DNA of 64,000 bases, taken from positions 92,132,001 through 92,196,000 of the forward strand of contig JANJGN010000019.1 of NCBI GenBank assembly GCA_026770705.1, in the 5' to 3' direction. The notes under the pieces were generated by a model. That model was not told where the DNA came from and made no database searches. It was given only the letters and a program-made list of their open reading frames with translations. This document shows positions 32,771-63,308 of the stretch, one piece after another. The DNA comes from Isurus oxyrinchus. Its lineage: Eukaryota. The position numbers were made by a program, and so were the translations under genes. Each line of letters opens with the position of its first letter. Position 1 is the stretch's first letter.

Positions 32771-35189
32771 AAATATTGGCAGGACTCCAAGAGAAACTCC
32801 ACAAGAAGACTAGCATCTTCTACATCAACTGAAGGGGAGAAAGGAGACGAGAAAAGCTTGGTGTTTAGACAGTGCCTTTCATGTCCTCAGCACCTCTCAA
32901 AGCGCTCATAGCCAATGAAGTATTTTTAAAGTGTACTCACTGTTGCTGTTTTACACTTTATTTATATTCAAATGATTGCTTATAAATATATTATGAATTA
33001 AGATTACTTGTTTTGTTTGTATCATCATCAAAATGCAGCATCTGTTGCCATGAAAATTCTTCAATAAAACCAATTATCTATCTAATTATTTAAACAATTC
33101 AGCTGAAAAGGCTTAATGACAAACAAGGAAGTTCTCCTGCTGGTCTGGACACTCAACCTGGATTCCAACCTCAACTAACATACTCAAAACAGATGGATCA
33201 CAGAGATGTTAGGTACACAACATGGTCTCAGTTAAATGTGCTCCAAGCTCATGGATAAATTTCAGGGTGCCACAGACATCACCACCATTTTACCCGCTTT
33301 GCACTGCACAGTACAGTGACCTGCTTTAAGGCCTTGGATGACTAATCGCGATTCGGATAGGGCGGCTCCTTGAGTTGACCAACATGTTCATGTGGAAAGC
33401 ATGATTGCCATAAGTCTGTCAGATAAGGAATGTGCAAACTGATGTGCTGAAGAGGGCATGGTTAAAATTGCACAGGACAATAGCGACTCTGCTACTGCCA
33501 ATACAGTGGCAACAGGGGGTTCTAATCCTGATTTCCTAACCTCAGCCCCCTAGTAACCTAATCTTACCACTGTAAACCCAACTCCAAAACCTACTCAACA
33601 CTCAAAGCACAAACTCTAATGCTCCAACAGTAACCTTAAACAAAACCCAGATCCATTTCTAAACACCTTCACCTAACTCAAGTCTCAATAATAAACACCC
33701 AATGCATAACTCTAAACCTAACCCAACTCCAGTAATAAACACCCTAACCATAAAGCCAGCTCCAGTGATAAACACCCTAACCCTAAACCCAGTTCCAGTA
33801 ATAAATGCCCTAACCCTAACCCAAGCTCAGGTAAAAAACACCTTAACCCTAAACCCAACTCCAGTAATAAACACCCTAACTGTAAACCCAACTCTAGTAA
33901 TAAACACCCTAAACCTGAACCCAGCTCCAGTAATAACCACCCTAACCGGAAACCCAACTCCAGTACTAAACGCTCTAACCGTAAACCCAACTCCAGTAAT
34001 AAACACCTAACCCTATACCCGTCTCCAGTAATGAACACCCTAACCCTAAACGCAACTCCAGTAATAAACACACCAACCCCAACTCCAGTGTTAAACACCC
34101 AAACCTGAAACAATACTCCAGTAATGAACACATAACCCAAAACCCAACTCCAGGTACAAATACCCCAACTGTAAATCCAACTTCAGAAATAAACACCCTA
34201 ACCGTAAACCCAACTCCAGTAATGGACACCTTAAACCAAACCCCAACTCCAGTAATGAACACAATAACCCCAATTCCAGAAATAAACACCCTAACCGTAA
34301 ACCCAACTCCAGTAACTAACACCCTAACCCTAAAGACAACTCCAGTAATACACACACTAACACTTAACCCAACTCCAGTAATAAACACCCTATCCCTAAA
34401 CCCAGCTCCAGTAATAAACACAGTAACCCCAACTCCAGTAATAAACAGCCTAAGCCGAAAGCCAACTCCAGTAATAAACAGCCTAAGCCGAAAGCCAACT
34501 CCAGTATTAAACACCCTGAACCAAAACCCAGCTCCAGTAATAAACACCTTAACCTCAACTCCAGTAAAAAACACCTGAAACCTAAACACAACTCCAGTGA
34601 TAAACACACTAACCCTAAAACCAAACGCAGTAACAAAGACCCTAACTCCAGCTCCAGTAATAAGCATCCTAACCCTAAAGCCAGCTCCAGAAATACACAC
34701 CCTAACCGTAAACCCAACTCCAGTAATAAACATACTAACCATAAACCCAACTCCAGTAATAAACATCCTAACCCAAAACCCAGCTCCAGTAATTAACACC
34801 GTAACCCCAACTCCAGTAATAAACACCCGAAATCTAAACACAACTCCAGTGATAAACACCCTAAACCAAACTCCAGTAATAATCACATAACCCAAAACCC
34901 AACTGCAGTAACAAGTACCCTAACCGTAAATCCAACTCCAGTAACAAACACCCAAACCATAAACCCAACACCAGTAATAAACATCCTAAGCCTAAACCCA
35001 GCTCCAGGAACAAAACACACCAACCCCAACTCCAGTAACAAACACCCAAACCCTAAACCCAACACCAGTAATAAACATCCTAAGCCTAAACCCAGCTCCA
35101 GTAACAAAACACACTAACCTCAACTCCAGTAACAAACACCCAAACCCTAATCCCAACTCCAGTAATAAACATCCTAAGCCTAAACCCAG

Positions 35190-38100
35190 CTCCAATAATA
35201 AAACACACTAACCCCAACTCCAGTAATAAACACCCAAAACCTAAACAAAACTCCAGAAATAAACACGCCAACCGTAAACCCAACGCCAGTAATAAAGGCC
35301 CTAACCCCAACCCCAACTCCAGTAATAAACAGCCTAACCCGAAACCCAACTCCAGAATTAAACACCATAAATCTAAACTCCACTCCAGTAATAAACACGT
35401 TAAACCCAAGTCCAGTAATAAACACCCGAAACCTAAAAAGAACACCAGTAATAAATAATCAAGACCTAAACAAAACTCCAGTAATAAACACACTAAACTT
35501 AAACCCAACTGGAGTAACAAATACCCTAACCGTAAACCGAATTACAGAAATAAACGACCGAACCGTAAACCCAACTGCAGCAATAAACACCGTAACCCTA
35601 AACGTAACACCAAAAATAAACAGCATAACTGTAAACCCAACTCCATTAATAAACACCCTAACCCTAAACCCAGCTCCAGTAATAACCACCCTAACCGGAA
35701 ACTCAACTCCGGTAATAAACACTCTAACCCAAACCCAACTCCAGAATTAAACACTGTAACCCCAGCTCCAGTAATAAACACCTTAAACCTAAACCCAGCT
35801 CCAGTAATAAAAACCCTAACCTCAACTCCAGTAATAAACACCCAAAACCTCAACAAAACTCCAGAAATAAACACGCTAACAGTAAACCCAATGCCGGTAA
35901 TAAAAACCCAAACCCTAAACCTAGCTACAGTAATAAAGACCCTAACACTAACTCCAACAAAAAACACCCTAAACCTGAACCCAACTCTGGTAATAGCCAC
36001 CCTAACTCTAAACGGAACACAAGTAATAAACAACCGAACTGTAAACCCAACTCCAGTAATAAACACCCTAACCCTAATCATAACTCCAGTAATAAACACC
36101 CTAATAGTAACCCAAATCCAGTAATAAACACCCTAATTGTAACCCAAATGCAGTGATAAACACCCTAATTGTAACCCAAATCCAGTGATAAATACCCTAA
36201 TCATAACCCAAGTCCAGTAATAAACTCCCTAAACCTAAACACAACTCCAGTAATAAACACCCTAACCCTAAACCCAACTCTAATAATAAACACCCTAACC
36301 CCAACTCCAGCAAAAACCACCCTAACACTGAACCCAACTCTAGTAATAACGACTCTAACCCTAAATCCAACTCCAGTAATAAACACCCTAACCCTAAACG
36401 CAGCTCCAGTAATAAACACACTAACCCCAACTCCAGTATTAAACATTGAAACCCGAAATCAAACTCCAGTAACAAACACACTAATCCTAAACCCAACTTC
36501 AGTAACAATTACCCTAACCGTAAACCCAACTTCATAAACAAACGCCCTAACCGTAAACCCAACTGCAGTAATAAACACCCTAACATCAGCTCCAGTAATA
36601 AACACCCTAATGCTAAATGTAACTCCAGTAATAAACACCATAACTGTAAACCCAACTCCATTAATAAACACCCTAACCCTAAACCCAGCTCCAGTAATAA
36701 CCACCCTAACCGGAAACTCAACTACGGTAATAAACACCCGAACCCAAAACCAACTCCAGAAATAAACACCCTAAACCCAACCCCAACTCCAGAATTAAAT
36801 ACCGTAACCCCAGCTCCAGTAATAAACACCTTAAACCTAAACCCAGCTCCAGTAATAAACACCCTAACCTCAACTCCAGTAATAAACACCCAAAACATCA
36901 CCAAAACTCCAGAAATAAACTCACTCACCGTAAACCCAATGCCGGTAATAAAAACCTAAACCCTAAAACTAGCTACAGTAATAAACAACCTAACCCTAAC
37001 CCCAGCTCCAGTAATAAACACCCTAACCCTAACTCCAGCAAAAAAACCCTAAACCTGAACCCAACTCTGGTAATAGCCACCCTAACCCTAAACGCAACTC
37101 AAGTAATAAACAACCGAACCGTAAACCCAACTCCAGTAATAAACACCCTAACAGTGACCCAACTCCAGTAATAAACACCCTAATAGTGACTCAACTGCAT
37201 CAATAAACACTCTAACCGTAACCCAACTCCAGTAATAAACACCCAAACCCTAAACCAAACTCCTGTAATAAACATCCTAACCCTAAACACAGCTCCAGTA
37301 ATAAACACACTAACCTCAACTCCAGTAGTAAACACCCAAACCCTAAACCAAACTCCTGTAATAAACATCCTAACCCTAAACACAGCTCCAGTAATAAACA
37401 CACTAACCTAAACTCCAGTAATAAACACCCAAAACCTAAACAAAACTCCAGTAATAAACACATTAACCCTAAACCCAACTGCAGTAACAAATACCCTAAC
37501 CATAAATCCAACTCCAGTAATAAACACCCAAACCCTAAACCCAACTCCAGTAATAAACATCCTAAGCCTAAACCCAGTTCCAGTAACAAAACACACTAAC
37601 AACAACTCCAGTAATAAACACCCAAAACCTAAACAAAACTCCGGAAATAAACACGCTAACCGTAAACCCAACGCCAGTAATAAAGATTCTAAACGTAAAC
37701 ACAACTCCATTAATAAAGACCCTAAATCCAACCCCAACTCCAGTAATAAACAGCCTAACCCGAAACCCAACTCCAGAATTTATCACCCTAAATCTATACC
37801 CCGCTCCAGTAATAAACACCTTAACCTCAGCTCCAGTAATAAACACCTGAAACCCAAAAACAACACCAGTAATAAATAACCAAAACCTAAACAAAACTCC
37901 AGTAATAAACACACTAACCCTAAACCCAAATGGGGTAACAAATACCCAAACCGTAAACCGAACTACAGAAATACATGACCGAACCATAAACCCAACTGCA
38001 GTAATAAACACCCTAAACCTAAACGCAGCTCCAGTAATAACCAACCGAACCGGAAACTCAACGCCGGTAATAAACAACCTAACCCAAACCCAACTCCAGA

Positions 38101-41100
38101 AAAAAACACCCTAAACCTGAACCCAACGCTGGTAATAGCCACCCTAACACTAAACGCAACTCAAGTAATAAACAACTGAACCGTAAACCCAACTCCGGTA
38201 ATAAACACCCTAATGGTGACCCAACTCCAGTAATAAACACTCAAATCATAACCCAACTCCAGTAATAAACACTCTAACCGTAACCCAACTCCAGTAATAA
38301 ACACCCAAACCCTAAACCAAACTCCTGTAATAAACATCCTAACCCTAAACCCAACTGCAGTAACAAATACCCTAATCGTAAATCCAACTCCAGTAATAAA
38401 CACCCAAACCCTAAACCTAGCTCCAGTAACAAAACACACTAACCCCAACTCCAGTAATAAACACCCAAAACCTAAACAAAACTCCAGAAATAAACACGTT
38501 AACCGTAAACCCAACGCCAGTAATGAAGGCCCTAACCCCAACCCCAACTCCAGTAATAAACAGCCTAACCCGAAACCCAACTCCAGAATTAAACACCATA
38601 AATCTAAACTCCACTCCAGTAATAAACACGTTAAACCCAAGTCCAGTAATAAACACCCGAAACCTAAAAAGAACACCAGTAATAAATAATCAAGACCTAA
38701 ACAAAACTCCAGTAATAAACACACTAAACTTAAACCCAACTGGAGTAACAAATACCCTAACCGTAAACCGAATTACAGAAATAAACGACCGAACCGTAAA
38801 CCCAACTGCAGCAATAAACACCGTAACCCTAAACGTAACACCAAAAATAAACAGCATAACTGTAAACCCAACTCCATTAATAAACACCCTAACCCTAAAC
38901 CCAGCTCCAGTAATAACCACCCTAACCGGAAACTCAACTCCGGTAATAAACACTCTAACCCAAACCCAACTCCAGAATTAAACACTGTAACCCCAGCTCC
39001 AGTAATAAACACCTTAAACCTAAACCCAGCTCCAGTAATAAAAACCCTAACCTCAACTCCAGTAATAAACACCCAAAACCTCAACAAAACTCCAGAAATA
39101 AACACGCTAACAGTAAACCCAATGCCGGTAATAAAAACCCAAACCCTAAACCTAGCTACAGTAATAAAGACCCTAACACTAACTCCAACAAAAAACACCC
39201 TAAACCTGAACCCAACTCTGGTAATAGCCACCCTAACTCTAAACGGAACACAAGTAATAAACAACCGAACTGTAAACCCAACTCCAGTAATAAACACCCT
39301 AACCCTAATCATAACTCCAGTAATAAACACCCTAATAGTAACCCAAATCCAGTAATAAACACCCTAATTGTAACCCAAATGCAGTGATAAACACCCTAAT
39401 TGTAACCCAAATCCAGTGATAAACACCCTAATCATAACCCAAGTCCAGTAATAAACTCCCTAAACCTAAACACAACTCCAGTAATAAACACCCTAACCCT
39501 AAACCCAACTCTAATAATAAACACCCTAACCCCAACTCCAGCAAAAACCACCCTAACACTGAACCCAACTCTAGTAATAACGACTCTAACCCTAAATCCA
39601 ACTCCAGTAATAAACACACTAACCCCAACTCCAGTATTAAACATTGAAACCCGAAATCAAACTCCAGTAACAAACACATTAATCCTAAACCCAACTTCAG
39701 TAACAATTACCCTAACCGTAAACCCAACTTCATAAACAAACGCCCTAACCGTAAACCCAACTGCAGTAATAAACACCCTAACATCAGCTCCAGTAATAAA
39801 CACCCTAATGCTAAATGTAACTCCAGTAATAAACACCATAACTGTAAACCCAACTCCATTAATAAACACCCTAACCCTAAACCCAGCTCCAGTAATAACC
39901 ACCCTAACCGGAAACTCAACTACGGTAATAAACACCCGAACCCAAAACCAACTCCAGAAATAAACACCCTAAACCCAACCCCAACTCCAGAATTAAATAC
40001 CGTAACCCCAGCTCCAGTAATAAACACCTTAAACCTAAACCCAGCTCCAGTAATAAACACCCTAACCTCAACTCCAGTAATAAACACCCAAAACATCACC
40101 AAAACTCCAGAAATAAACTCACTCACCGTAAACCCAATGCCGGTAATAAAAACCTAAACCCTAAAACTAGCTACAGTAATAAACAACCTAACCCTAACCC
40201 CAGCTCCAGTAATAAACACCCTAACCCTAACTCCAGCAAAAAAACCCTAAACCTGAACCCAACTCTGGTAATAGCCACCCTAACCCTAAACGCAACTCAA
40301 GTAATAAACAACCGAACCGTAAACCCAACTCCAGTAATAAACACCCTAACAGTGACCCAACTCCAGTAATAAACACCCTAATAGTGACTCAACTGCATCA
40401 ATAAACACTCTAACCGTAACCCAACTCCAGTAATAAACACCCAAACCCTAAACCAAACTCCTGTAATAAACATCCTAACCCTAAACACAGCTCCAGTAAT
40501 AAACACACTAACCTCAACTCCAGTAGTAAACACCCAAACCCTAAACCAAACTCCTGTAATAAACATCCTAACCCTAAACACAGCTCCAGTAATAAACACA
40601 CTAACCTAAACTCCAGTAATAAACACCCAAAACCTAAACAAAACTCCAGTAATAAACACATTAACCCTAAACCCAACTGCAGTAACAAATACCCTAACCA
40701 TAAATCCAACTCCAGTAATAAACACCCAAACCCTAAACCCAACTCCAGTAATAAACATCCTAAGCCTAAACCCAGTTCCAGTAACAAAACACACTAACAA
40801 CAACTCCAGTAATAAACACCCAAAACCTAAACAAAACTCCGGAAATAAACACGCTAACCGTAAACCCAACGCCAGTAATAAAGATTCTAAACGTAAACAC
40901 AACTCCATTAATAAAGACCCTAAATCCAACCCCAACTCCAGTAATAAACAGCCTAACCCGAAACCCAACTCCAGAATTTATCACCCTAAATCTATACCCC
41001 GCTCCAGTAATAAACACCTTAACCTCAGCTCCAGTAATAAACACCTGAAAACCAAAAACAACACCAGTAATAAATAACCAAAACCTAAACAAAACTCCAG

Positions 41101-41600
41101 TAATAAACACACTAACCCTAAACCCAAATGGGGTAACAAATACCCAAACCGTAAACCGAACTACAGAAATACATGACCGAACCATAAACCCAACTGCAGT
41201 AATAAACACCCTAAACCTAAACGCAGCTCCAGTAATAACCAACCGAACCGGAAACTCAACGCCGGTAATAAACAACCTAACCCAAACCCAACTCCAGAAA
41301 AAAACACCCTAAACCTGAACCCAACTCTGGTAATAGCCACCCTAACACTAAACGCAACTCAAGTAATAAACAACTGAACCGTAAACCCAACTCCGGTAAT
41401 AAACACCCTAATGGTGACCCAACTCCAGTAATAAACACTCAAATCATAACCCAACTCCAGTAATAAACACTCTAACCGTAACCCAACTCCAGTAATAAAC
41501 ACCCAAACCCTAAACCAAACTCCTGTAATAAACATCCTAACCCTAAACCCAACTGCAGTAACAAATACCCTAATCGTAAATCCAACTCCAGTAATAAACA
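35190..41600 (+). repeat. Tandem higher-order duplication, 2 x ~3.2 kb
   Basis: Identical translated ORFs at offsets 3231 (35542 vs 38773) and 3198 (37568 vs 40766). The offsets differ by exactly one 33-bp monomer. Confidence 0.92.
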
Positions 41601-42143
41601 CTCTAACCGTAACCCAACTCCAGTAATAAACACTCTAACCGTAACCCAACTCCAGTAATAAACACTCTAACCGTAACCCAACTCCAGTAATAAACACTCT
41701 AACCGTGACCCAACTCCAGTAATAAACACTCTAACCGTGACCCAACTCCAGTAATAAACACTCTAACCGTGACCCAACTCCAGTAATAAACACTCTAACC
41801 GTGACCCAACTCCAGTAATAAACACTCTAACCATAACCCAACTCCAGTAATAAACACTCTAACCGTAACCCAACTCCAGTAATAAACACTCTAACCGTAA
41901 CCCAACTCCAGTAATAAACACTCTAACCGTAACCCAACTCCAGTAATAAACACTCTAACCGTAACCCAACTCCAGTAATAAACACTCTAACCGTAACCCA
42001 ACTCCAGTAATAAACACTCTAACCGTAACCCAACTCCAGTAATAAACACTCTAACCGTAACCCAACTCCAGTAATAAACACTCTAACCGTAACCCAACTC
42101 CAGTAATAAACACTCTAACCGTAACCCAACTCCAGTAATAAAC
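41590..42143 (+). repeat. Homogeneous 32-bp sub-array (~17 copies)
   Basis: (ctctaaccgtaacccaactccagtaataaaca)n, with a short run of a ccgtga variant. Confidence 0.92.
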
Positions 42144-45100
42144 ACACTAACCCTAAACCCAACTGCAGTAACAAATACCCTAATCGTAAATCCAACTCCA
42201 GTAATAAACATCCTAAGCCTAAACCCAGTTCCAGTAACAAAACACACTAACAACAACTCCAGTAATAAACACCCAAAACCTAAACAAAACTCCGGAAATA
42301 AACACGCTAACCGTAAATCCAACGCCAGTAATAAAGACTCTAAACATAAACACAACTCCATTAATAAAGACCCTAAATCCAACCCCAACTCCAGTAATAA
42401 ACAGCCTAACCCGAAACCCAACTCCAGAATTAAACACCCTAAATCTATACCCCGCTCCAGTAATAAACACCTTAACCCCAGCTCCAGTAATAAACACCCG
42501 AAACCTAAAAACAACACCAGTAATAAATAACCGAAACCTAAACAAAACTCCAGTAATAAACACACTAACCCTAAACCCAAATGGGGTAACAAATACCCAA
42601 ACCGTAAACCGAACTACAGAAATACATGACCGAACCGTAAACCCAACTGCAGTAATAAACACTCTAACCCTAAACGCAGCTCCAGTAATAACCAACCGAA
42701 CCGGAAACTCAACGCCGGTAATAAACAACCTAACCCAAACCCAACTCCAGAAAAAAACACCCTAAACCTGAACCCAACTCTGGTAATAGCCACCCTAACA
42801 CTAAACGCAACTCAAGTAATAAACAACCGAACCGTAAACCCAACTCCAGTAATAAACACCTTAATGGTGACCCAACTCCAGTAATAAACACTCAAATCAT
42901 AACCCAACTCCAGTAATAAACACTTAAATCATAACCCAACTCCAGTAATAAACACTCAAATCATAACCCAACACCAGTAATAAACACACTAACCCTAAAC
43001 CCAACAGCAGTAATAAACACCCTAACCCTAAAGACAACTCCAGTAATACACATCCTAACCGTGAACCCAGCTCCAATCATAACCACCCTAACAGTAAACC
43101 GAAATCCGGTAATAAAGGCCCTAACCATAAACCCAACCCCAGTAATAAACCCCTAACCCTAAACCCAACTCCAGTAATAAACACCCTAAACACAACCCCA
43201 AATCCAGTAATCAACACCCTAAACCTAAGCCCAACCCCAGTAATAAACCCCTAACCCTAAACCCAACTCCAGTAATAAACACCCAAAACCTAAACAAAAC
43301 ACCTGTAACAAACACCCTAACCCTAAACCCAGCTCCAGTAATAAACACCCTAACCCTAAACGCAACTCAAGTAATAAACAACCAAACCGTAAACCCACTC
43401 CAGTAATAAACACCTTAACCCTAAACCCAGCTCCAGTAATAACCAACCTAACCGGAAACCCAACTCCAGTAATAACCAACCTAATCGTTACCCAATTCCA
43501 GTAATAAACACCCAAATCGTAACCCAGTTCCAGTAATAAACACGCTAACCGTAACCAAACTCCAGTAATACACACAGTAAGCCCAACTCCAGAAATAAAC
43601 AGCCTAACCCGAAAACCAACTCCAGTATTAAACATCCTAAACCTAAACCCAGCTCCAGCAATAAACATCTTAATCCCAACTCCAGTAATAAACACCCAAA
43701 ACCTAAACCCAACTCCACTAATAAACACCCAAAACCTAAACAAAACTCCAGAAATAAACATACAAACCCTAAACCCAAATGCAGTAACAAAGACCCTAAC
43801 CCTAAACCCACCTCCAGAAATAAACACCCTAACTGTAAACCCAACTCCGGTAATAAAGGCACTAACCCTAAAGACAACTCCAGTAATACACACCCTAAAC
43901 CTAAACTCAGCTCCATTAATAAACACCCTAACCCCAGCTCCAGTAATAAACACCCAAAACCTAAACAAAACTCCAGAAATAAACACACAAACCCTAAACC
44001 CAAATGCAGTAACAAAGTCCCTAACCCTAAACCGACCTCCAGAAATAAATACCCTAACTGTAAAACCAACTCCGGTAATAAAGGGCCTAACCGTAAACCC
44101 AACTCCAATAATAGACATCTTAAACCCAACACCAACCCCAGTAATAAACACTCTAACCCTAAACCCAACAGCAGTAATAAACACCCTAACCCTAAAGACA
44201 ACTCCAGTAATACACATCCTAACCATGAACCCAGCTCCAAACATAACCACCGGAACAGTAAACCGAAATCCGGTAATAAAGGCCCTAACCATAAACCCAA
44301 CCCCAGTAATAAACCCCGAACCCTAAACCCATCTCCAGTAATAAACACCCTAACCCTAAACCCAGCTCCAGTAATAACCAACCTAACTGTAAACCCAACT
44401 CCAGTAATAACCAACCTAATCGTTACCCAATTCCAGTAATAAACACCCAAATCGTAACCCAGTTCCAGTAATAAACACGCTAACCATAACCCAACTCCAG
44501 TAATACACACAGTAAGCCCAACTCCAGAAATAAACAGCCTAACCCGAAAACCAACTCCAGGATTAAACATCCTAAATCTGAACCCAGCTCCAGTAATAAA
44601 CTTCTTAATCCCAGCTCCAGTAATAAACACCCAAAACCTAAACCCAACTCCACTAATAAACACCCAAAACCTAAACAAAACTCCTGTAATAAACACACAA
44701 ACCCTAAACCCAAATGCAGTAACAAAGTCCCTAACCCTAAACCGACCTCCAGAAATAAATACCCTAACTGTAAACCCAACTCCGCTAATAAAGGCCCTAA
44801 CCGTAAACCCAACTCCAGTAATAGACATCTTAAACCCCACACCAAACCCAGTAATAAACACCCTAACCCTAAACCCAACTCCGCTAATAAAGGCACTAAC
44901 CCTAAAGACAACTCCAGTAATAGACATCTTAAACCCCACACCAAACCCAGTAATAAACACCCTAACCCTAAACCCAACTCCACTAATAAACACACAAAAC
45001 CTAAACAAAACTCCTGTAATAAACACACAAACCCTAAACCCAATGCAGTAACAAAGACCCTAACCCTAAACCGACCTCCAGAAATAAATACCCTAACTGT

Positions 45101-51100: not shown

Positions 51101-52002
51101 AACCCAACTCCAATAATGAACAACCTAACCCTAAACCCAACCCCAGTAATAAACACCCTAAACCTAAACACAACCCCAGTAATAAACCCCTAACCTTAAA
51201 CCCAACTCCAGTAATAAACACCCAAAACCTAAACAAAACACCAGTAATAAACCCCTATCCCTAAACCCAACTCCAGTAATAAACACCCAAAACCTAAACA
51301 AAACACCTGTAATAAATACCCTATCCCTAAACCCAACTCCAGTAATAAACACCCAAAACCTAAACAAAATTCCAGTAATAAACACCTAACACTAAACCTA
51401 GCTCCAGTAATAAACAACCTAACCCTAACCCCAGCTCCAGTAATAAACACCCAAACCCTAAACCCAACTCCAGTAATAAACACCCTAACCTTAAACCCAG
51501 CTCCAGTAATAAACAACCTGATCGTAACCCAACTCCAGTAATAAATAGCTAAACCCTAAACCCAACTCTATCAATAAACATCCTAACCATAAACCCAGCT
51601 CCAGTAACAAACACACTAACCCCAAATGCAGTAATGAACACACAAAACCTAAACAAAACTCCAGAAATAAACACGTTAACCGCAAACCCAATGCCGGTAA
51701 TAGGCTCCCTAACCCTAAACCTAGCTCCAGTAATAAACACAATAACCCTAACCCCAGCTCCAGTAATAACCACCCTAACCGTAAACCCAACTCCAGTAAT
51801 AAACATCCGAACCCTAAACCCAGCTTCAGTAATAAACACCCTAACCCGAAATCCAATTCCAGTAATAAACATCCTAACCCAAAACCTAAACAAAACTCCA
51901 GAAATAAACACCATAACCGTGAACCCAAAGCCACTAATAAAGGCCCTAAACGTAATCTCAACTCTAGTAATAAGCACAGTAACCCCAACTACAGTAATAA
52001 GC

Positions 52003-52139
52003 AAAACAAAAACAGAATTACCTGGAAAAACTCAGCAGGTCTGGCAGCATCGGCGGAGAAGAAAAGAGTTGACGTTTCGAGTCCTCATGACCCTTCGACA
52101 GAACTTGATTTCGAGTCCAGGAAAGAGTTGAAATATAAG
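52003..52139 (-). mobile_element. Short 5'-truncated Penelope-like insertion in the satellite
   Basis: Reverse complement of the PLE 3' terminus. TSD CAGTAATAAGC (51992-52002, 52140-52150). Confidence 0.9.
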
Positions 52140-52853
52140 CAGTAATAAGCAGCCTAACCCGAAACCCAACTCCAGTATTAAACACCCTAAACCTAAACCC
52201 AGCTCCAGTAATAACCACACTAACCGTAAACCCAACTCCAGTAATAAACATCCTAATCATAACCCAACTCCAGTAATAAACACCCGAAACCTAAACCCAA
52301 CTCCAGTAATAAACATCCGAACCCTAAACCCAGCTTCAGTAATAAACACCCTAACCCGAAATCCAATTCCAGTAATAAACATCCTAACCCTAAACCCAGC
52401 TCCAGTAATAAACACACTAAACCCAACAATAAACACCCAAAACCTAAACAAAACTCCAAAAATAGACATCATAACCGTGAACCCAAAGCCAGTAATAAAG
52501 GCCCTAAACGTAAACTCAAATCCAGTAATAAACACAGTAAACCCAACTCCAGTAATAAACAGCCTAACCCAAAAGCCAACACCAGTATTAAACACCCTAA
52601 ACCTAAACCCAACTCCACTAATAAACACCCAAAACCTAAACAAAACTCCCGTAATAAACACACAAACCCTAAACCCAAATGCAGTAACAACGAACCTAAC
52701 CCTAAACCGACCTCCAGAAATAAAGACCCTAACCGTAAACCCAACTCTGATAATAAAGGCCCTAACCGTAAACCCAACTCCAGTAATAGACATCTTAAAC
52801 ACACCAACCCCAGTAATAAACACACTAACCCTAAACCCAACAGCAGTAATAAA

Positions 52854-54540
52854 CACTTCCTCCAAATAAAAGGTGTGGCTATGGGTACCCGCATGGGCCC
52901 CAGCTATGCCTGTCTCTTTATGGGGTATGTGGAACATTCCTTGTTGCAAAACTACTCCGGCCCCCTTCCACAACTTTTTCTCCGGTACATCGATGATTAC
53001 TTCGGTGCCACTTCATGCTCTCGTCGGGACTTGGAAAAATGTATTAATTTTGCTTCCAATCTCCACCCCTGCATCATTTTCACGTGGTCCATCTCTGACA
53101 CTTCCCTTCCCTTCCTTGACCCCTCTGTCTCAATCTCTGGTGACAGACTGTCCACCAATATCCATTACAAACCCACTGACTCCCACAGCTACCTCGACTA
53201 CAGCTCCTCACACCCCGCTTCCTGTAAGGACTCCATCCCATTCTCCCAGTTCCTTCGCCTTCGTCGCATCTGTTCCGATGATGCTACCTTCAAAAACGGT
53301 TCCTCTGACATGTCCTCCTTCTTCCTTAACTGAGGTTTTCCACCGACGGTCGTTGACAGGGCCCTCGACCGTGTCCGGCCCATCTCCCGCGCATCCGCCC
53401 TCACGCCTTCTCCTCCCTCCCAGAAACATGATAGGGTCCCCCTTGTCCTCACTTATCACCCCACCAGCCTCCGCATTCAAAGGATCATCCTCCGCCATTT
53501 CCGCCAACTCCAGCACGATGCCACCACCAAACACATCTTCCCTTCACCCCCCTTATCGGCATTCCGTAGGGATCGCTCCCTCCGGGACACCCTGGTCCAC
53601 TCCTCCATCACCCCCTACTCCTCAACCCCCTCCTATGGCACCACCCCATGCCCACGCAAAAGATGTAACACCTGCCCCTTCACTTCCTCTCTCCTCACCG
53701 TCCAAGGGCCCAAACACTCCTTTCAAGTGAAGCAGCATTTCACTTGCATTTCCCCCAACTTAGTCTACTGCATTCGTTGCTCCCAATGTGGTCTCCTCTA
53801 CATTGGAGAGACCAAACGTAAACTGGGCGACCGCTTTGCAGAACACCTGCGGTCTGTCCGCAAGAATGACCCAAACCTCCCTGTCGCTTGCCATTTTAAC
53901 ACTCCACCCTGCTCTCTTGCCCACATGTCTGTCCTTGGCTTGCTGCATTGTTCCAGTGAAGCCCAACGCAAACTGGAGGAACAACACCTCATCTTCCGAC
54001 TAGGCACCTTACAGCCTTCCGGACTGAATATTGAATTCAACAACTTTAGGTCGTGAGCTCCCTCCCCCATCCCCACCCCCTTTCTGTTTCCCCCTTTCTT
54101 TTTTTTCCAATAAATTATATAGATTTTTCTTTTCCCACCTATTTCCATTATTTTTAAATATTTTAAAATCTTTTATGCTCTCCCCACCCCCACTAGAGCT
54201 GTACCTTGAGTGCCCTACCATCCATTCTTAATTAGCACATTCATTTAGATAATATCACCAACTTTAACTTTAACACCTATGTGTTCTATTGTACCATTGT
54301 TGTTGACATCTTTTGATGATCAGCTTCTATCACTGCTTGTTTGTCCACACAACCACCTCTCTCTCTCTCTATCTCTCCGCCCCCCACACACACACCTTAA
54401 ACCAGCTTATATTTCAACTTTTTCTTGGACTCGAACTCAAGTTCTGTCGAAGGGTCATGAGGACTCGAAACGTCAACTCTTTTCTTCTCTGCCGATGCTG
54501 CCAGACCTGCTGAGTTTTTCCTGGTAATTCTGTTTTTGTT
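52854..54540 (+). mobile_element. 5'-truncated Penelope-like element (RT + GIY-YIG endonuclease, Neptune-like Cys linker)
   Basis: One frame 52854-54056: QIKGVAMGTRMGPSYA, LRYIDD, YKPTDSHSYL, CPRKRCNTC, NLVYCIRCSQCGLLYIGETKRKLGDRFAEH, GLN. One premature TGA at 53331 (likely CGA>TGA). 3' UTR/pseudo-LTR 54057-54540. Confidence 0.95.
54440..54478 (+). ncRNA. Putative minimal type I hammerhead ribozyme in the PLE terminal repeat
   Basis: AGTT-CTGTCGA-A-GGGTC-atgag-GACTC-GAAA-C-GTC-AACT: stem I AGUU/AACU, stem II GGGUC/GACUC, GAAA, GUC cleavage triplet, palindromic ACGT in place of stem III. Also at 4929-4967(-), 4986-5024(+), 5803-5841(-) and 52067-52105(-). Confidence 0.6.
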
Positions 54541-57500
54541 CCAGTAATAAACATCCTAATCGCAGCCCAACTCCAGTAATAAACATCCAAACCCTAAACT
54601 CAAACTCCAGTAATAAACACCCTAAACTAAACCCAGCTCCAGTAATAAACACCCTGATCGTAACCCAACTCCAGTAATAAACAGCTAAACCCGAAACCCA
54701 ACTCTATCAATAAACATCCTAACCATAAACCCTGCTCCAGTAACAAACACCCTAACCCCAGCTCCAGTAATAAACACCCAAAACCTAAACAAAATTCCAG
54801 TAATAAACACCCTAACCCTAAACCTAGCTCCAGTAATAAACACCCTAACCCTAACCCCAGCTCCAGTAATAAACAGCCTAACCCTAAACCCAACTACAGT
54901 AATAAACACCCTAACCTTAAACCCAGCTCCAGTAATAAACACCCTAATCGTAACACAATTCCAGTAATAAACACCCTAATCGCAGCCCAACTCCAGTAAT
55001 AAACACAAAACCCTGAACCCAACTCCTGTAATAAACACCCTAAACTAAACCTAGCTCCAGTAATAAACACCCTGATCGTAACCCAACTCCAGTAATAAAC
55101 ACCCTGATCGTAACCCAAGTCCAGTAATAAACAGCTAAACCCTAAACCCAACTCTATCAATAAACATCCTAACCATAAACCCAGCTCCAGTAACAAACAC
55201 ACTAACCCCAATTGCAGTAACGAACACACAAAAACTAAACAAAACTCCAGAAATAAACACACTAACCGTAAAACCAATGCCGGTAATAGGCTCCCTAACC
55301 CTAAACCTAGTTCCAGTAATAAACACACTAACCCTAACCCCGGCTCCAGTAATAAACACCCAAACCCTAAAACCAGCAAAAAACACCCTAAACCTGAATC
55401 CAACTCTAATAATAATCACCCTAACACGAAACACAAATCCAGTAATAAATGCCCTAACCATAAACCCAACTCCAGTAATAAACACCCTAACCCTAAAGAC
55501 AACTCCAGTAATACACACCCTAACCGTGAACTCAGCTCCAATCATAACCACCCTAACAGTAAACCGAACTCGGTAATAAAGGCCCTAACCATAAACCCAA
55601 CTCCAGTAATAAACACCCTAAACACAACCCCAACTCCAGTAATAAACACCCTAACCCTAAACCCAACCCCAGTAATAAACCCCCAAAACCTAAACAAAGC
55701 TCCAGTAATAAAACCCTATCCCTAAATCCAAATCCAGTAATAAACACCCAAAACCTAAACGAAACACCTGTAATAAACACCCTAAACCGAGCTCCAGTAA
55801 TAAACACCCTAACCCTAAACGCAACTCAAGTAATAAACAACATAACCGTAAACACAACTCCAGTAATAAACACCCTAATCGTTACCCAATTCCAGTAATA
55901 AACACCCAAATCGTAACCCAGTTCCAGTAATAAACATGCTAACCGTAACCCAACTCCAGTAATACACACAGTAAGCCCAACTCCAGTAATAAACAGCCTA
56001 ACCCGAAAACCAACTCTAGTATTAAACATCCTAAACCCAGCTCCAGTAATAAACATCTTAATCCCAACTCCAGTAATAAAAACCCAAAATCTAAACCCAA
56101 CTCCACTAATAAACACCCAAAACCTAAACAAAACTCCTGTAATAAACACACTAACCCTAAACCCAAATGCAGTAACAAAGTCCCTAACCCTAAACCGACC
56201 TCCAGAAATAAACACCCTAACCGTAAACCCAACTCCGGTAATAAAGGCCCTAACCGTAAACCCAACTCCAGTAATAGACATCTTAAACCCAACACCAACC
56301 CCAGTAATAAACACTATAACCCTAAACCCAAATGTAGTAATAAACACCCTAACCCTAAAGACAACTCCAGTAATACACACCCTAACCGTGAACCCAGCTC
56401 CAATCATAACCACCCTAACAGTAAACCGAACTCCGGTAATAAAGGCCCTAACCATAAACCCAACTCCAGTAATAAACACCCTAAACACAACCCCAAATCC
56501 AGTAATAAACACCATAACCCTAAACCCAAACCCAGTAATAAACCCCTAACCCTAAACCCAACTCCAGTAATAAACACCCAAAACCTAAACAAAACTCCAG
56601 TAATAAACCCCTATCCCTAAACCCAACTCCAGTAATAAACACCCAAAACCTAAACAAAACACCTGTAATAAACACCCTAACCCTAAACCCAGCTCCAGTA
56701 ATAAACACTCTAACCCTAAACGCAACTCAAGTAATAAACAACCTAACCGTAAACCCAACTCCAGTAATAAACACCCCAATCGTTACCCAATTCCAGTAAT
56801 AAACACCCAAATCGTAACCCAGTTCCAGTAATAAACACGCTAACCGTAAACAAACTTCAGTAATACACACAGTAAGCCCAACTCCAGTAATAAACAGCCT
56901 AACCCGAAAACCAACTCCAGTATTAAACATCCTAAACCTAAACCCAGCTCCAGCAATAAACATCTTAATCCCAGCTCCAGTAATAAACACCCAAAACCTA
57001 AACCCAACTCCACTAATAAACACCCAAAACCTAAACCCAACTCCACTAATAAACACCCAAAACCTAAACCCAACTCCACTAATAAACAACCAAAACCTAA
57101 ACAAAACTCCTGTAATAAACACCCTAACCGTAAAACCAACTCCGGTAATAAAGGCCCTAACCGTAAACCCAATTCCAGTAATAGACACCTTAAACCCAAC
57201 ACCAATCCCAGTAATAAACACCCTAACTCTAAACCCAACAGCAGTAATAAACACCCTAACCCTAAAGACAACTTCAGTAATACACACCCTAAACCGAAAC
57301 TCAGCTCCATTAATAAACACCCTAACCCCAGCTCCAGTAATAAACACCCAAAACCTAAACAAAATTCCAGTAATAAACACCCTAACCCTAAACCTAGCTC
57401 CAGTAATAAACACCCTAACCCTAACCCCAGCTCCAGTAATAAACAGCCTAACCCTAAACCCAACTCCAGTAATAAACACCCTAACCTTAAACCCAGCTCC

Positions 57501-60500
57501 AGTAATAAACACCCTAATCGTAACCCGACTCCAGTAATGAACACCCTAATCGCAGCCCAACTCCAGTAATAAACACCCAAACCCTAAACCCAACTCCAGT
57601 AATAAACACCCGAAACTACACCCAGCTCCAGTAATAAACACCCTGATCGTAACCCAACTCCAGTAATAAACACCCTGATCGTAACCCAACTCCAGTAACA
57701 AACACCCTAATCGCAACCCAACTCCAGTAATAAACAGCTAAACCCTAAACCCAACTCTATCAATAAACATCCTAACCATAAACCCTGCTCCAGTAACAAA
57801 CACACTAACCCCAATTGCAGTAATGAACACACAAAACCTAAACAAAACTCCAGAAATAAATACACTAACCGTAAAACCAATGCCGGTAATAGGCTCCCTA
57901 ACCCTAAACCTAGCTCCAGTAATAAACACACTAACCCTAACCCCGGCTCCAGTAATAAACACCCTAACCCTAAACCAGCAAAAACACCCAAAACCTGAAT
58001 CCAACTCTAGTAATAATCACCCTAACCCGAAACCCAACTCCAGTAATAAACACCCTAACCCTAAACCCAGCTCCAGTAATAAACACTCTAACCCTAAACG
58101 CAACTCAAGTAATAAACAATCTAACCGTAAACCCAACTCCAGTAATAAACACCCCAATCATTACCCAATTCCAGTAATAAACACCCAAATCATAACCCAG
58201 TTCCAGTAATAAACACGCTAACCGTAACCAAACTTCAGTAATACACACAGTAAGCCCAACTCCAGTAATAAACAGCCTAACCCGAAAACCAACTCCAGTA
58301 TTAAACATCCTAAACCTAAACCCAGCTCCAGTAATAAACATCTTAATCCCAGCTCCAGTAATAAACACCCAAAACCTAAACCCAACTCCACTAATAAACA
58401 CCCAAAACCTAAACAAAACTCCTGTAATAAACACACTAACCCTAAAGCCAAATGCAGTAACAAAGACCCTAAGCCTAAACCCACCTCCAGAAATAAACAC
58501 CCTAACCGTAAAACCAACTCCGGTAATAAAGGCCCTAACCGTAAACCCAACTCCAGTAATAGACACCTTAAACCCAACACCAACCCCAGTAATAAACACC
58601 CTAACCCTAAACCCAACAGCAGTAATAAACACCCTAACCCTAAAGACAACACCAGTAATACACACCCCAAACCTAAACTCAGCTCCATTAATAAACACCC
58701 TAACCCCAGCTCCAGTAATGAACACCCAAAACCTAAACAAAATTCCAGTAATAAACACCCTAACCCTAAACCTAGCTCCAGTAATAAACACCCTAACCCT
58801 AACCCCAGCTCCAGTAATAAACAGCCTAACCCTAAACCCAGCTCCAGTAATAAACACCCTAACCTTAAACACAGCTCCAGTAATAAACACCCTAATCGTA
58901 ACCCAACTCCAGTAATAAACACCCAAACCCTAAACCCAACTCCAGTAATAAACACCCTAAACTACACCCAGCTCCTGTAATAAACACCCTGATCGTAACC
59001 CAACTCCAGTAATAAACACACTGATCGTAACCCAACTCCAGTAATAAACACCCTAATCGCAACCCAACTCCAGTAATAAACAGCTAAACCCTAAACCCAA
59101 CTCTATCAATAAACATCCTAACTATAAACCCTGCTCCAGTAACAAACACACTAACCCCAATTGCAGTAATGAACACACAAAACCTAAACAAAACTCCAGT
59201 AATAAACACCCTAACCCTAAACCCAGCTCCAGTAATAACCAATATAACCATAAACCCAACTGCAGTAATAAACACCCAAATCATAACCCAACTCCAGTAA
59301 TAAACACCCTAACCGTAAAACCAATGCCGGTAATAGGCTCCCTAACCCTAAACCTAGCTCCAGTAATAAACACACTAACCCTAACCCCGGCTCCAGTAAT
59401 AAACACCCTAACCTTAACACCAGCAAAAAACACCCAAAACCTGAATCCAACTCTAGTAGTAATCACCCTAACCCGAAACCCAACTCCAATAATAAATGCC
59501 CTAACCATAAACCCAACTCCAGTAATAAACACCTTAACCCTAAACCCAGCTCCAGTAATAACCAATATAACCGTAAACCCAACTCCAGTAATAAACACCC
59601 AAATCGTAACCCAACTCCAGTAATAAACACCCTAACCGTAACCCAATTCCAGGAATAAACACCCTAACCGTAACCCAAACTCCTGTAATAAACATCCTAA
59701 CCCTAAACACAGCTCCAGTAATAAACACACTAACCTCAACTCCAGTAATAAACACCCAAAACCTAAACAAAACTCCAGTAATAAACACCATAACCCTAAA
59801 CGCAACTCCAGTAATAAACACACTAACCGTAAACCCAGCTCCAGTAATAAACCCCTAACCCTAAACCCAACTCCAGTAATAAACACCCTATCCCTAAACC
59901 CAGCCCCAGTAATAACAAACCTAACCCTAAACCGAACTCCAGTAATAAACACCCAAATTGTAAACCCAGCTGCAGTCATAACCAAACCGACCCTACACCC
60001 AACTCCAGTACTAAACGCCCTAAGCATAAACCCAACTCCAGTAATAAACACCCTAACTCCAGCTCCAGTAATAAAGACCCTAACGCTAAACGTAACTCCA
60101 ATAATAAACAGCCTAACTGTAAGCCCAACTCCAGTAATACAGACCCTAATCATAACCCAACTCCAGTAGTGAACACCCTAACCCTAAACCCAACCCCAGT
60201 AATAAATATCCGAACCCTAAACCCAGCTCCAGTAATAAGCACCCTAACCCAAAACCCAACTCCATTAATAAACACCCAAACCCTAAACGCAACTCCAGTA
60301 ATAAACATCCTAACCCTAAACCCAGCTCCAGAAATAAACACACTAACCCCAACAATAAATACCCAAAACCTAAACAAAATTCCAGAAATAAACACCATAA
60401 CCATGACCCAAAGCCGGTAATAAAGGCCCTAATGTAAACCCAACTCCAGTAATAAAGACAGTAACCCCAACTCCAGTAATAAAAAGCCTAACCCAAAACC

Positions 60501-63308
60501 CAACACCAGTATTAAACACTCTAAACCTAAACCCAGCTCCAGTAGTAAAGAGCTTAACCCCAACTCCAGTAATAAACACCCTAACCCTAAACCCAACTCC
60601 ACTAATAAACACCCAAAACCTACACAAAACTTCTGTAACAAACACAGTAACCCTAAACCCAAATGCAGTAACAAAGACCCTAACCCCAGCTCCAGTAATA
60701 AACACCCTAACCCTAACCCCAGTTCCAGTAATAAACACCCTAACCCTAAACCCAACTCCAGTAATAAACACCCGAAACCTAAACCCAACTCCAGTAATAA
60801 ACACGCTATCCCAAACCCAACTCCAGTAATAAACACCCTAAACCCAACCCCAACTCCAGAATTAAACACTGTAACCCCAGCTCCAGGAAAAAACACCCTA
60901 AACCCAACTCCAGTAATAAACACCCGAAACCTAAACCCAACTCCAGTAATAAACACCCTAAACCCAATACCAGTAATAATCACCCTAACCCCAAAGATTA
61001 CTCCAGTAATACACACCCTATCCCTAAACCCAGCCCCAGTAATAACAAACTAACGCTAAACCGAACTCCAGTAACAAACACCCTAACCGTAAAGCCAGCT
61101 CCAGTCATAACCAATCTAACCCTACACCCAACTGCAGTAATAAATGCCCTAACTCTGGCTCCAGTAATATAGACCCTAACGCTAAACGTAACTCCAATAA
61201 TAAACAGCCTAACTGTAAGCCCAACTCCAGTAATACACACCCTAATCGTAACCAAACTCCAGTAATAAACACACTAACCCTAAACCCAAACCCAGTAATA
61301 AACATTCTAACCCTAAACCCAGCTCCAGTAATAAACACCCTAACCCAAAACCCAACTCCATTAATAAACACCCAAACCCTAAACCCAACTCCAGTAATAA
61401 ACATCCTAACCCTAAACCCAACTGCAGTGACAAATACCCTAACTGTAAACCCAAATCCAGAAATAAACACCCTAACCCCAACTCCAGTAATGAACACACT
61501 AACCATAAACACAGCTCCAGTAATAAACACCCTAAACCCAACTCCAGTAATAAACACTCTAACCCTAAAGCCAACTCCAGTAATAAACACCCTAACCCTA
61601 AATCCAACTCCAGTAATAAACACACTAACCTTAAACCCAGCTCCAGTAATATACACCCTAACCCTAAACCCAACTCCAGTAATAAACGCCCTAACCCTAA
61701 ACCTAGTTCCAGTAATAAACACCCTAACCCTAACCACAGCTCCAGTAATAAACACCATAACCCTATTCCCAGCTCCAGTAATAAACACCCTAACTCTAAA
61801 CCCAACACCAGTAATAAACACCCTAACCCTAAACCAGCTCCAGTAATAAACACACTAACCTTAAGCCCAGCTCCAGTAATAACCACCCTAACCGTAACCC
61901 CAAATCCAGTAATAAACACCCTAATCGTGGCCCAACTCCAGTAATAAACACCCTAATCATAATCCAACTCCAATAATAAACACACTAACCGTAACCCAAC
62001 TCCAGTATTAAATACCCTAACTGTAAACCCAATTCCAGTAATAAATATCCTAACCCTAAACCCAGCTCCAGTAACAACACGCTAACCCCAACTCCTGCAA
62101 TAAACACCCAAAACCTAAACAAAACTCCAGAAATAAACACGTTAATCGTAAACCCAACGCCGGTAATAAAGGCCCTAAACGTAAACCCAACTCCAGTATT
62201 AAAGACCCTAAACATAACCCCAACTCCAGTAATAAACACCGTAACCCCAATTCCTGTAATAAACAGCCTAACCCGAAACCCAACTCCAGTATTGAACACC
62301 CTAACCCTAAAGCCAGCTTCAGTAATAAACACCTTAACCCCAACTCCAGTAATAAACACCCGAAACCTAAAACCAACGTCAGTAATAAATAACCAAAACC
62401 TAAGCAAAACTCCAGTAATAAACACACTAACCCTAAACCCAACTGGAGTAACAAATACCCTAACCGTAAACCTAACTACAGAAATAAACACCCTAACCGT
62501 AAACCCAAATCCGGTAATAAAGGCCCTAACCATTAACCCAACTCCAGTAATATACACCTTAAACCGAACCCCAACTCCAGTAATAAACACCCGAAGCAGA
62601 AACCCAATTCCAGTACTAAACACCCTAAACCTAAACACAGCTCCAGTGATAAATACCCTAACCCCAACTCCAGTAACAAACACCCAAAACCTAAACCCAA
62701 CTCCAGTAATAAACACACTAACCCTAAATGCAACTGCAGTAACAAATACCCTAACCGTAAACCCAACTCCAGAAATAAACACACTAACCATAAACCCAAT
62801 GCTGGTAATAAAGACCCTAACCCTAATCCCAATTCCAGTAATAAACATCCTAACCCTAAACCCAATTCCAGTAATAAACACCCTAACCCTAAACCTAGCT
62901 CTAGTAATAAACACCCTAACCCTAATTCCAACTCCAATAATAAACACGGTAAACCGAAACCCAACTTCAGTAATAAACTCTCTAACCATAAATCTTGCTC
63001 CAGTAATAAACACCCTAACTCTAAACCCAGCTCCATTAATAAACACCCTAACCCTAAACCCACGCCAGTATTAAACACCCTAACCCTAAACCCAACTCCA
63101 GTATTAAACACCCTAACCCTAAACCCAACTCCAGTAATAAACACCCTAACCCTAAACCCAGCTCCAGTAATAAACACCCTAACCCTAAACCCAACTCCAG
63201 TAATAAACACCCTAACCGTAAACCCAGCTGCAGTAATAAACACCCTAACCCTAAACCCACCAGTATTAAACACCCTAACCCTAAATCCAACTCCAGTAAT
63301 AAACACTC

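Follow-up and report, generated by a model that had tools for sequence, protein, structure and literature searches.

The window, 64,000 nucleotides of Isurus oxyrinchus contig JANJGN010000019.1 (positions 92,132,001 to 92,196,000), carries the first exon of SRP14 near its right end, and all features described below are given on the forward strand. The gene had been named correctly: the translations of exons 2 and 3 match PF02290 (E 5e-6 and 5e-5). In RNA-type contigs of two studies, exon 1 (63480..63539, ATG at 63516) continues at 63539 into an overhang identical to exon 2, joined with zero mismatches; 2 of 4 runs had a contig at this place. SRP14 is intact and spliced; the true start of its first exon may lie further upstream than 63480. 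The second and third exons and the final coding exon are found 5-11 kb past the window; the short fourth exon was not located. Genome Pfam searches for the SRP14 and GCN2-type (PF12745) families gave no match, but the controls were silent too, and short exons make this silence uninformative. Downstream lie two long frames on the minus strand, neither with a Pfam match.

The proximal promoter (63306..63479) is a small CpG island (GC 0.56, CpG observed/expected 0.95 over 63306-63540) containing what we take to be a CCAAT box at 63314, a CRE palindrome at 63327 and ETS-like TTTCCGG motifs at 63459 and 63477. An earlier note on this DNA described the promoter, about 200 bp long, as the only boundary between a satellite and the gene. 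It does abut the satellite, but repeats lie on both sides: a G-rich minisatellite in intron 1 begins within the window (63662..64000) and continues for 4.3 kb beyond it, forming a 4.7-kb array in which 97% of 25-base windows have a G4Hunter-type score of at least 1.2. In the 4 RNA-type runs no contig covers satellite units or the upstream promoter, which speaks neither for nor against a divergent TERRA-like transcript.

The upstream array is built head-to-tail from a modal unit of 33 bp (33712-63306 by TRF). The unit reads CCCTAA, CCCTAA, ACCCAA, CTCCAG, TAATAA and ACA in succession, exactly as it had been parsed. Wrap-around alignment counted 874 units, with 552 distinct units among 870, a divergence of 12%, and identities of 0.63 at lag 33 and 0.41 at lag 6. 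Originally described as a 30-kb satellite, the array is not continuous: a 1.68-kb insert (52857..54539) splits it into a distal arm (33712..52856), where variant units and duplicated blocks form a mosaic, and a proximal arm (54540..63305), leaving about 27.9 kb of repeat. Blocks of 100-500 bp are common to both arms across the insert at 86-100% identity, and divergence from the modal unit in the distal arm is about 10-17% per 25-unit bin. Direct reading of the sequence adds a decayed distal fringe of C/A-rich unit fragments (33530..33711, left limit approximate). The insert is a 5'-truncated retroelement with the end of an RT, a GIY-YIG endonuclease and one in-frame stop, presumably Penelope-like from its domain order; against Pfam, its ORFs gave GIY-YIG at the cut-off (E 1.3e-4) and RVT_1 below it (E 0.019). 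The 12-bp direct repeat at both of its ends is indistinguishable from a unit-phase offset.

The 27-bp variant noticed earlier exists (92 of 874 units, with six bases missing in the hexamer zone), but it is not the commonest short form, which is 32 bp long (143 units). A homogeneous run of this 32-bp variant (41582..42145; 98-100% identity at multiples of lag 32) represents a recent local expansion. A 3.2-kb block (35200..41601) is a recent tandem duplication or an assembly duplication, and its copies differ at 3 positions over 2000 bases and at 4 over 1187 (99.7-99.8% identity). Internal block duplications are of many ages, and the recent ones suggest that copy number may vary among individuals. 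Within the unit, A positions are mutated in 3-8% of cases versus 13-22% for C, and A and T are the least mutable bases throughout.

Genome-wide, exact matches of unit probes fall inside the window without exception, all on the same strand (115 of 115 and 162 of 162). The mapping proposed in the earlier note thus yields a single locus that is not subtelomeric, counted as exact matches in assembled sequence, which strongly diverged copies or unassembled arrays would escape. The contig measures 114.3 Mb; 22 Mb of it separate the array from the nearer end, and 92 Mb of chromosome lie to the left. Subtelomeric satellites are found near chromosome ends, usually several; genome-wide exact matches placed no copy of the 33-bp family at any end. 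A 20-mer from the telomere-like side of the unit has 7 matches outside the window, all of them in period-6 telomeric arrays. Head-to-tail units of about 7-100 bp, confined to one locus, characterise a single-locus minisatellite, and the array has both features.

The last whole unit ends at 63305 and is followed by three further in-phase bases to 63308, so that the array stops 5-8 bp before the CCAAT box. Counted from 63308, the previously given distances of 5 bp to the CCAAT box (63314) and 207 bp to the ATG (63516) are right. The junction is real: in 4 of 4 DNA runs, short-read contigs from a possible source sample and from three studies of a second species, one contig begins at 63280 within the terminal unit, which carries a private variant, and continues through the promoter. 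The two species differ at 13 of 380 promoter/intron bases, yet both have the junction. Across 63280-63313 no difference in the terminal unit is listed for the second species, and the first C of CCAAT is a T in all three second-species runs. Contig depths on the unit add up to about 90-250x that of the promoter contig, a ratio which is not a copy number. The eight promoter-proximal units (63046..63305) are the nearest to consensus in the whole array, with 9 differences versus a minimum of 16 in 855 other eight-unit windows, and CCCTAACCCTAA is intact in 7 of the 8 versus at most 5 in any other window. The first units at the distal end, with 1-4 differences each, are less conserved than these eight.

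An exact match to the TTAGGG repeat covers 13 of the 33 bases of the unit, and 0 of 3000 shuffles reach even 12, so a short telomeric seed is possible. The hexamer-based ancestry proposed for the unit could hold for these bases only; the remainder are at shuffle level, and whole-unit ancestry is unsupported. The several degenerate hexamers are not borne out: tested by composition shuffles, agreement with CCCTAA repeats extends to 11 of the 21 bases at positions 13-33, with P 0.34 in the best register and 0.058 in a fixed one, and to 8 of the 16 at positions 18-33 (P 0.48). The two perfect hexamers are present in the consensus, but in only 97 of 870 units. CCCTAA occurs three times in a row nowhere in the window; with 0 triple hexamers and a lag-6 identity of 0.41, the array lacks the near-exact period-6 TTAGGG of a short interstitial telomeric sequence. 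The genome's own telomerase RNA (TERC, RF00024) matches the unit only in the 10-base template. A TERC-ITS origin, in which copied telomerase-RNA sequence would flank the telomeric repeat, was rejected, since the other 21 unit bases and both flanks are at chance versus telomerase RNA (P 0.66, 0.31 and 0.77).

The array does offer half-sites of what we take to be the TRF1/TRF2 consensus (YAACCCTAR, 176 times), and neighbouring half-sites are at most 35 bp apart in 51 of 175 gaps. Their density is 5.9 per kb versus 34.7 per kb in a degenerate interstitial telomeric array of the same genome (C17; 5 kb, period 6), which has three times the hexamer density and six times the half-site density of the SRP14 array. 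The telomere-like 12 bases are 14.9% diverged versus 9.3% for positions 17-33. With half-sites this sparse and the telomere-like bases the most decayed, a maintained shelterin platform is not supported. G-quadruplex potential is weak and flank-like (4.2% of windows at or above 1.2; 0.21 canonical motifs per kb versus 0.27), on which ground G4/R-loop-driven expansion was rejected for the upstream array, though not for the intronic one.

Kilobase arrays beside promoters were also found elsewhere in this genome. Among 39 CpG-island-like YY1-motif sites, 10 have an array of at least 1 kb within 500 bp; four of these are upstream, one 58 bp from the motif, and motif direction in this sample may differ from gene direction. 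Of the 121 sites found, the first 100 on the list served as the pool for hand-picking this sample, with C26 thinned; 60 were fetched and 39 kept, 21 of 60 being dropped by the GC/CpG filter, without which the count is 12 of 60. Two of the sampled loci (L162 and L163) have a common unit and are probably paralogues. The largest upstream array among sampled promoters is 5.4 kb, and none nears the SRP14 array in size. As background, 3 of 20 arbitrary points (round coordinates, no formal random draw) have an array of at least 1 kb at or within 600 bp of the centre, so promoter enrichment over background is not established. Two of the 20 points lie in or beside arrays of at least 55 kb and at least 31 kb, lengths of merged TRF blocks that extend past the sequence fetched, and the first of these has a 33-bp unit with 73% matches. 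At ZNF143-motif sites (60 fetched of 87) an array of at least 300 bp lies within 600 bp in 7 of 60; this was a poor promoter sample, most of the 60 being without a CpG island, and an ETS-CRE pattern gave 4 sites only and was set aside.

Four loci (L082, L159, L157 and L160) resemble the SRP14 array in carrying kilobase arrays 60-500 bp from a promoter motif, but their units are 19, 20, 54 and 20 bp and their lengths 1-5 kb. At L082 the arrays on either side are G-rich and point away, with TTAGGG in the upstream unit, and L159 has the words AACCCTAA and CCAACTCCA in common with the SRP14 array. A resemblance between the unit and the L159 flank is not counted as homology: the P of 0.0065 versus shuffled units belongs to the best of 120 flank windows and was noticed post hoc. 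Among 75 arrays at 140 sampled loci are 2 whose units, unrelated and of 19 and 20 bp, mostly include a telomere hexamer (exact matches of 9 and 11 bases), and both sit at promoter-like sites. The G-rich strand points away from the promoter at SRP14 and in 6 of 7 upstream arrays, but in only 6 of 12 downstream arrays, where it makes no simple rule. The arrangement of the SRP14 array is not exceptional for this genome; unusual are its size at a promoter and its eight best-conserved proximal units.

The array is probably a single-locus 33-bp macro-minisatellite that grew in place at the SRP14 promoter edge and is tolerated rather than functional; it is likely largely neutral. Its seed would have been C/A-rich DNA with a doubled CCCTAA at the upstream promoter edge, derived either from C/A-rich promoter-flank DNA by slippage or from the insertion of a very short telomeric stretch, two sources which the data do not separate and between which we lean slightly to the former. 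Once duplicated as a 33-bp unit, the seed could have given 27- and 21-bp variants through slippage between internal 6-bp repeats, and interior unequal exchange and conversion would have multiplied variant blocks of 32 bp to 3.2 kb until the array reached about 870 units, with the retroelement inserting later. This turnover likely spared the terminal units, which are anchored to unique promoter DNA and would have remained close to the ancestral unit. For such neutral terminal stability human D1S80, with constant terminal repeats and a mutating centre, is a reported parallel (PMC3356730). The promoter's own factors likely preserve its activity by keeping the small CpG island open, and the islands of other repeat-flanked promoters in this genome may be held open likewise. 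Local growth is favoured by the one locus, the one strand and the block duplications of many ages, by the fastest decay falling on the telomere-like part, by the commonness of repeat-flanked promoters and large arrays in the genome, by the telomere hexamers in two unrelated arrays at promoter-like sites, and by the intact, spliced SRP14. Counted against it are the size, which no sampled promoter array approaches, the persistence of the junction despite 13 differences between the two species in 380 bases, the 13-base telomere match exceeding all 75 sampled arrays, the arrays of at least 1 kb at 3 of 20 arbitrary points as well, the poor fit of the strand rule to downstream arrays, and the extra conservation of the eight proximal units, which selection would explain too.

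It is unlikely that, in line with the earlier note's idea minus its fossil end, the unit came from a short interstitial telomeric insertion and the array recruits telomere binders such as TRF1/TRF2 and ZBTB48, making SRP14 chromatin or output depend on the availability of telomere factors. Such recruitment would fit the 13-base match, the half-sites with their close spacing, and the intact doublets being densest at the promoter; ZBTB48 is reported to bind TTAGGG and variant repeats and to occupy promoters as an activator (PMC5452029), and extra-telomeric TRF2 at promoters is likewise reported (PMC6879327, PMC6264879). However, the unit has two hexamers and never three, the doublet decays faster than the rest and is seldom intact, the remaining 21 bases and the flanks bear no telomerase-RNA likeness, G-quadruplex potential is similar to that of flank DNA, and unrelated promoter arrays of the same genome carry comparable motifs.

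Quite unlikely as well is a selected upstream promoter element in the proximal units, with the array a neutral overgrowth that perhaps terminates upstream read-through. Each unit has AATAAA and ATAAACA, the latter presumably a forkhead-type motif (the sense strand has 549 RTAAAYA and 614 AATAAA words), divergence within the unit is lowest in AATAAACA (7.2%), and the best-conserved block adjoins the promoter. However, with A and T positions the least mutable, mutation may account for this conservation, the forkhead label is presumptive, terminal stability has its neutral precedent in D1S80, and even the adjoining CCAAT is not kept in the second species. Promoter VNTRs are reported to be able to tune expression (PMC12776774), which counts for such an element. 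More doubtful still, the eight telomere-doublet units might be a selected ZBTB48/TRF2 docking site that would keep the SRP14 CpG island open against the 28-kb repeat, with shark promoters (SRP14, L082, L159) repeatedly recruiting TTAGGG minisatellites.

An assembly artefact at the junction or in much of the array is very improbable: the 3.2-kb block is duplicated at 99.7-99.8% identity, and among the contigs examined none has 31 letters satellite-side of the junction or spans the array, but the junction contig in all four DNA runs, the summed depth over the unit, the 552 distinct units and a window without any N stand against it. The fossil chromosome end suggested earlier, or a fusion point, has as slim a chance. 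The CCCTAA content is strand-uniform, and fusions are reported as the main interchromosomal change in elasmobranchs (PMC11406177), but fusion ITSs are described as head-to-head (PMC8537989), and the window has 0 inverted cores and 0 occurrences of TTAGGGTTAGGG on the + strand. The C-rich strand would place the telomere to the left, yet 92 Mb of chromosome lies there, and the 33-bp family is absent from the real ends. BMF lies 377 kb upstream of SRP14 on the same strand; the two are reported as neighbours in chicken (PMC12159700) and both map to human band 15q15.1, a kept linkage which argues against a synteny break as far as BMF and the examined flank, 310 kb apart, show.

Compared with known systems, the array resembles promoter VNTRs such as those upstream of MAOA (PMC12776774) and D1S80 (PMC3356730) in its 30-odd-bp unit, interspersed variants, single locus, stable terminal units and place directly upstream of a promoter, but differs in its roughly 870 units, 28 kb and satellite-like kilobase block duplications. 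With interstitial telomeric sequences of the short and fusion classes (PMC8537989) it shares an interstitial position and TTAGGG words on one strand, but its period is 33 and not 6, at most two hexamers stand in a row, and it is neither head-to-head nor flanked by telomerase-RNA sequence. The plant satellite PaB6 (PMC4273535) likewise has intact TTAGGG dimers among other sequence in its unit, but its unit is 249 bp long and its 10^4-10^6 copies are pericentromeric on multiple chromosomes, whereas the SRP14 array occupies one euchromatic gene locus. The authors of that paper hold that a telomere origin cannot be established from sequence, and the same conclusion applies here. The SRP14 array is likely an extreme but ordinary promoter-flanking minisatellite.

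Kilobase arrays adjoin about a quarter of the CpG-island promoters sampled in this genome. A literature search found no description of this, and nothing combining SRP14, satellite and shark. The SRP14 locus is a natural test of how small an active promoter can be between 28 kb and 4.7 kb of repeats. Telomere-protein binding under selection on the proximal units would, if true, link telomere factors to a housekeeping promoter via a repeat array, and the docking reading, if true, would mean that the chromatin of housekeeping genes responds to the supply of telomere factors in a lineage of long-lived vertebrates.

The 33-bp tandem repeat upstream of SRP14 was delimited by TRF as one array (33712-63306), in which wrap-around alignment parsed 874 units: most measure 33 bp (604), the remainder 32 bp (143), 27 bp (92), 21 bp (6) or some other length (29). 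The 27-bp variant described as common in the earlier note exists, but the commonest short length is 32 bp. Likewise, the reported ~30-kb satellite is present but broken by a 5'-truncated Penelope-like retroelement (52857-54539; RT end and GIY-YIG frame, one in-frame stop), which has a single copy within the array. Units diverge from the modal unit by 12% on average and 552 of the 870 near-complete ones are distinct. Duplicated blocks form a mosaic in the interior: a 3.2-kb tandem duplication whose copies differ at 7 of 3187 bases, a uniform run of 32-bp units (41582-42145) and many blocks of 100-750 bp at 86-100% identity, with some pairs lying across the retroelement. On the left the array fades into degenerate C/A-rich DNA; on the right it stops abruptly.

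The final complete unit reaches 63305, and the SRP14 promoter follows with a CCAAT box (63314), a TGACGTCA palindrome (63327) and the ATG at 63516. The identity of the gene was confirmed: its downstream exons translate to SRP14, and exons 1 and 2 are joined without mismatch, skipping a 5.5-kb intron, in contigs of presumed RNA type from two studies. These contigs lack the differences typical of the processed SRP14 retrocopy (L002:1320-1546; G000:C30, about 8.36 Mb), which is frameshifted and decayed, with exons 1-3 joined. Intron 1 carries a 4.7-kb G-rich minisatellite of very high G-quadruplex potential, starting 120 bp after exon 1 (window 63662-64000, continuing in L003:1-4340), so the promoter and exon 1 form a ~350-bp island between two arrays. 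Early intron 1 also holds a 14-base stretch that is a reverse match to the upstream unit at 13/14. On the minus strand 22-27 kb past the window, two long open frames of 385 and 693 codons (L005:1875-6696), without a match in Pfam, are possibly large exons of SRP14's downstream neighbour.

The junction between satellite and promoter is supported and common to two species. In 4/4 DNA runs, of which one may be the source sample and three are separate studies of the second species, a single contig extends from 63280, within the terminal unit, through the SRP14 promoter. The second species differs from the window at 13/380 bases. Among the four runs no contig had 31 letters on the repeat side, the formal requirement for a bridge, and none spanned the whole array. 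As the break point is identical and the same private variant is found in both species, misjoining appears unlikely. Many units were detected in the second species, with a summed depth ~90-170x that of the promoter contig (a measure of depth, not of copy number). In all three of its runs CCAAT at 63314 is TCAAT; the box is therefore not invariant.

Genome-wide mapping of the unit, proposed earlier as a choice between a single and a subtelomeric location, identified a single locus: all 115 matches of a 20-base unit core in the 4.98-Gb assembly, and all 162 of a degenerate 23-base pattern, fall in the window. A telomere-side pattern matched the array 32 times; its 7 remaining matches, elsewhere in the assembly, all fall in period-6 telomeric arrays. 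The array lies 22 Mb inside a 114.3-Mb contig, counted from its end, with BMF on the same strand 377 kb upstream. Human SRP14 and BMF are both placed at 15q15.1 (PMC6826789, in part), and in chicken one listed 360-kb island includes BMF, SRP14 and EIF2AK4 (PMC12159700, in part). No head-to-head junction, described as a mark of fusion interstitial telomeric sequences (PMC8537989, in part), was found in the window. With the BMF-SRP14 interval read in part, the interstitial single locus, the retained linkage and the lack of such a junction make the suggested fossil chromosome end unlikely. A better candidate is a degenerate period-6 telomeric array of 5.1 kb on contig C17 (L019:4700-9860, about 88.51 Mb of 118.7 Mb), which, 30 Mb from the contig end, is a true interstitial telomeric sequence. 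Telomere-protein half-sites number 34.7 per kb there vs 5.9 in the SRP14 array.

A stretch of 13 bases in the unit consensus is identical to telomere repeats. Composition shuffles, which ignore internal duplication (possible in any minisatellite unit), reached a 12-base match in 0/3000 cases and the telomere alignment score of the consensus in 1/1000; the match therefore shows the doubled CCCTAA, not its source. The view of the unit as hexamer-based extends to these 13 bases but not to the other 21, which match telomere repeats at chance level (P 0.34 in the best register, 0.058 in a fixed one), and nowhere in the array do three hexamers occur in succession. The two perfect hexamers are likewise present in the consensus but intact in just 97/870 units. 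Divergence is 14.9% at positions 1-12 vs 9.3% at 17-33 (for C alone, 21.8% vs 13.4%), a contrast that may be exaggerated by slippage in the alignment and by variants common to several units. The telomerase RNA of this genome matches the unit through its template only, and the G-quadruplex potential of the array equals flank level. The 27-bp variants probably arose by slippage between internal 6-bp repeats, whatever the origin of those repeats.

Promoters were sampled through a YY1 motif (121 sites in the genome, control 0; 60 fetched, 39 passing a CpG-island filter). In this small sample 10/39 sites lay no more than 500 bp from an array of at least 1 kb, with the array upstream in 4 and downstream in 6 (longest upstream 4.7 and 5.4 kb), and enrichment over background was not supported (3/20 arbitrary points). 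Two of the 20 arbitrary points lie in or beside arrays of at least 55 kb and at least 31 kb, the former with a 33-bp unit at 73% matches. Around them, arrays of at least 55, 26 and 31 kb and of 12 kb, with 33-, 37- and 50-bp units, occupy L172-L179 (G000:C12:59.96-60.05 Mb) and L180-L185 (G000:C7:89.97-90.04 Mb). Interstitial macro-minisatellites appear to make up a large share of this genome. Among 100 YY1-motif matches listed, 20 cluster at G000:C26:22-40 Mb, probably a zinc-finger gene cluster; some adjoin 167-252-bp repeats that resemble zinc-finger exons.

The 140 sampled loci contain 75 arrays. In two of these, at L082 and L159, whose units are unrelated, most copies include the telomere hexamer, and each of the two sits at a promoter-like site. 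At L082 (3130-6552; G000:C36, about 5.487-5.491 Mb), arrays of 1.1-1.4 kb flank a ZNF143-motif promoter, the upstream one with a 19-bp unit containing TTAGGG, and the G-rich strands of both point away from the promoter. The layout is that of SRP14 at small scale, but the units are unrelated to the SRP14 unit. The 2.5-kb array at L159 (5090-7684; G000:C35, about 19.293-19.296 Mb; 20-bp unit with AACCCTAA and CCAACTCCA) lies downstream of a YY1 motif at a distance of ~200 bp, with many CCAAT boxes ahead of the motif, and the likeness of the array's flank to the SRP14 unit exceeds that of 119 other flank windows. Size, promoter contact and the CCCTAA word are thus each not rare in this genome; no second case combining all three at 28 kb was found in the sampled loci.

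The eight units adjoining the promoter stand out for their conservation: they show 9 differences from the consensus, whereas none of 855 other windows has fewer than 16, and 7/8 keep the doublet vs at most 5 in other eight-unit windows. Neutral anchoring of terminal units would explain this, with a precedent in D1S80 (PMC3356730, in part). The alternative is selection on a putative binding site. As ZBTB48 is described as binding TTAGGG and variant repeats and acting at promoters (PMC5452029, in part), its binding at this candidate site would be plausible. A fresh copy run is ruled out, since the differences are mostly private. Each array unit also contains ATAAACA and AATAAA, presumably a forkhead motif and a poly(A) signal.

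A literature search found nothing combining SRP14, satellite and shark. The closest parallel found is a promoter-proximal minisatellite (PMC12776774); PaB6, a satellite with telomere words, is another (PMC4273535, in part). The SRP14 array is a very large promoter-proximal minisatellite, a new case of a known class. It probably grew in place via slippage and unequal exchange and is probably neutral, with the SRP14 promoter probably maintaining itself beside it.
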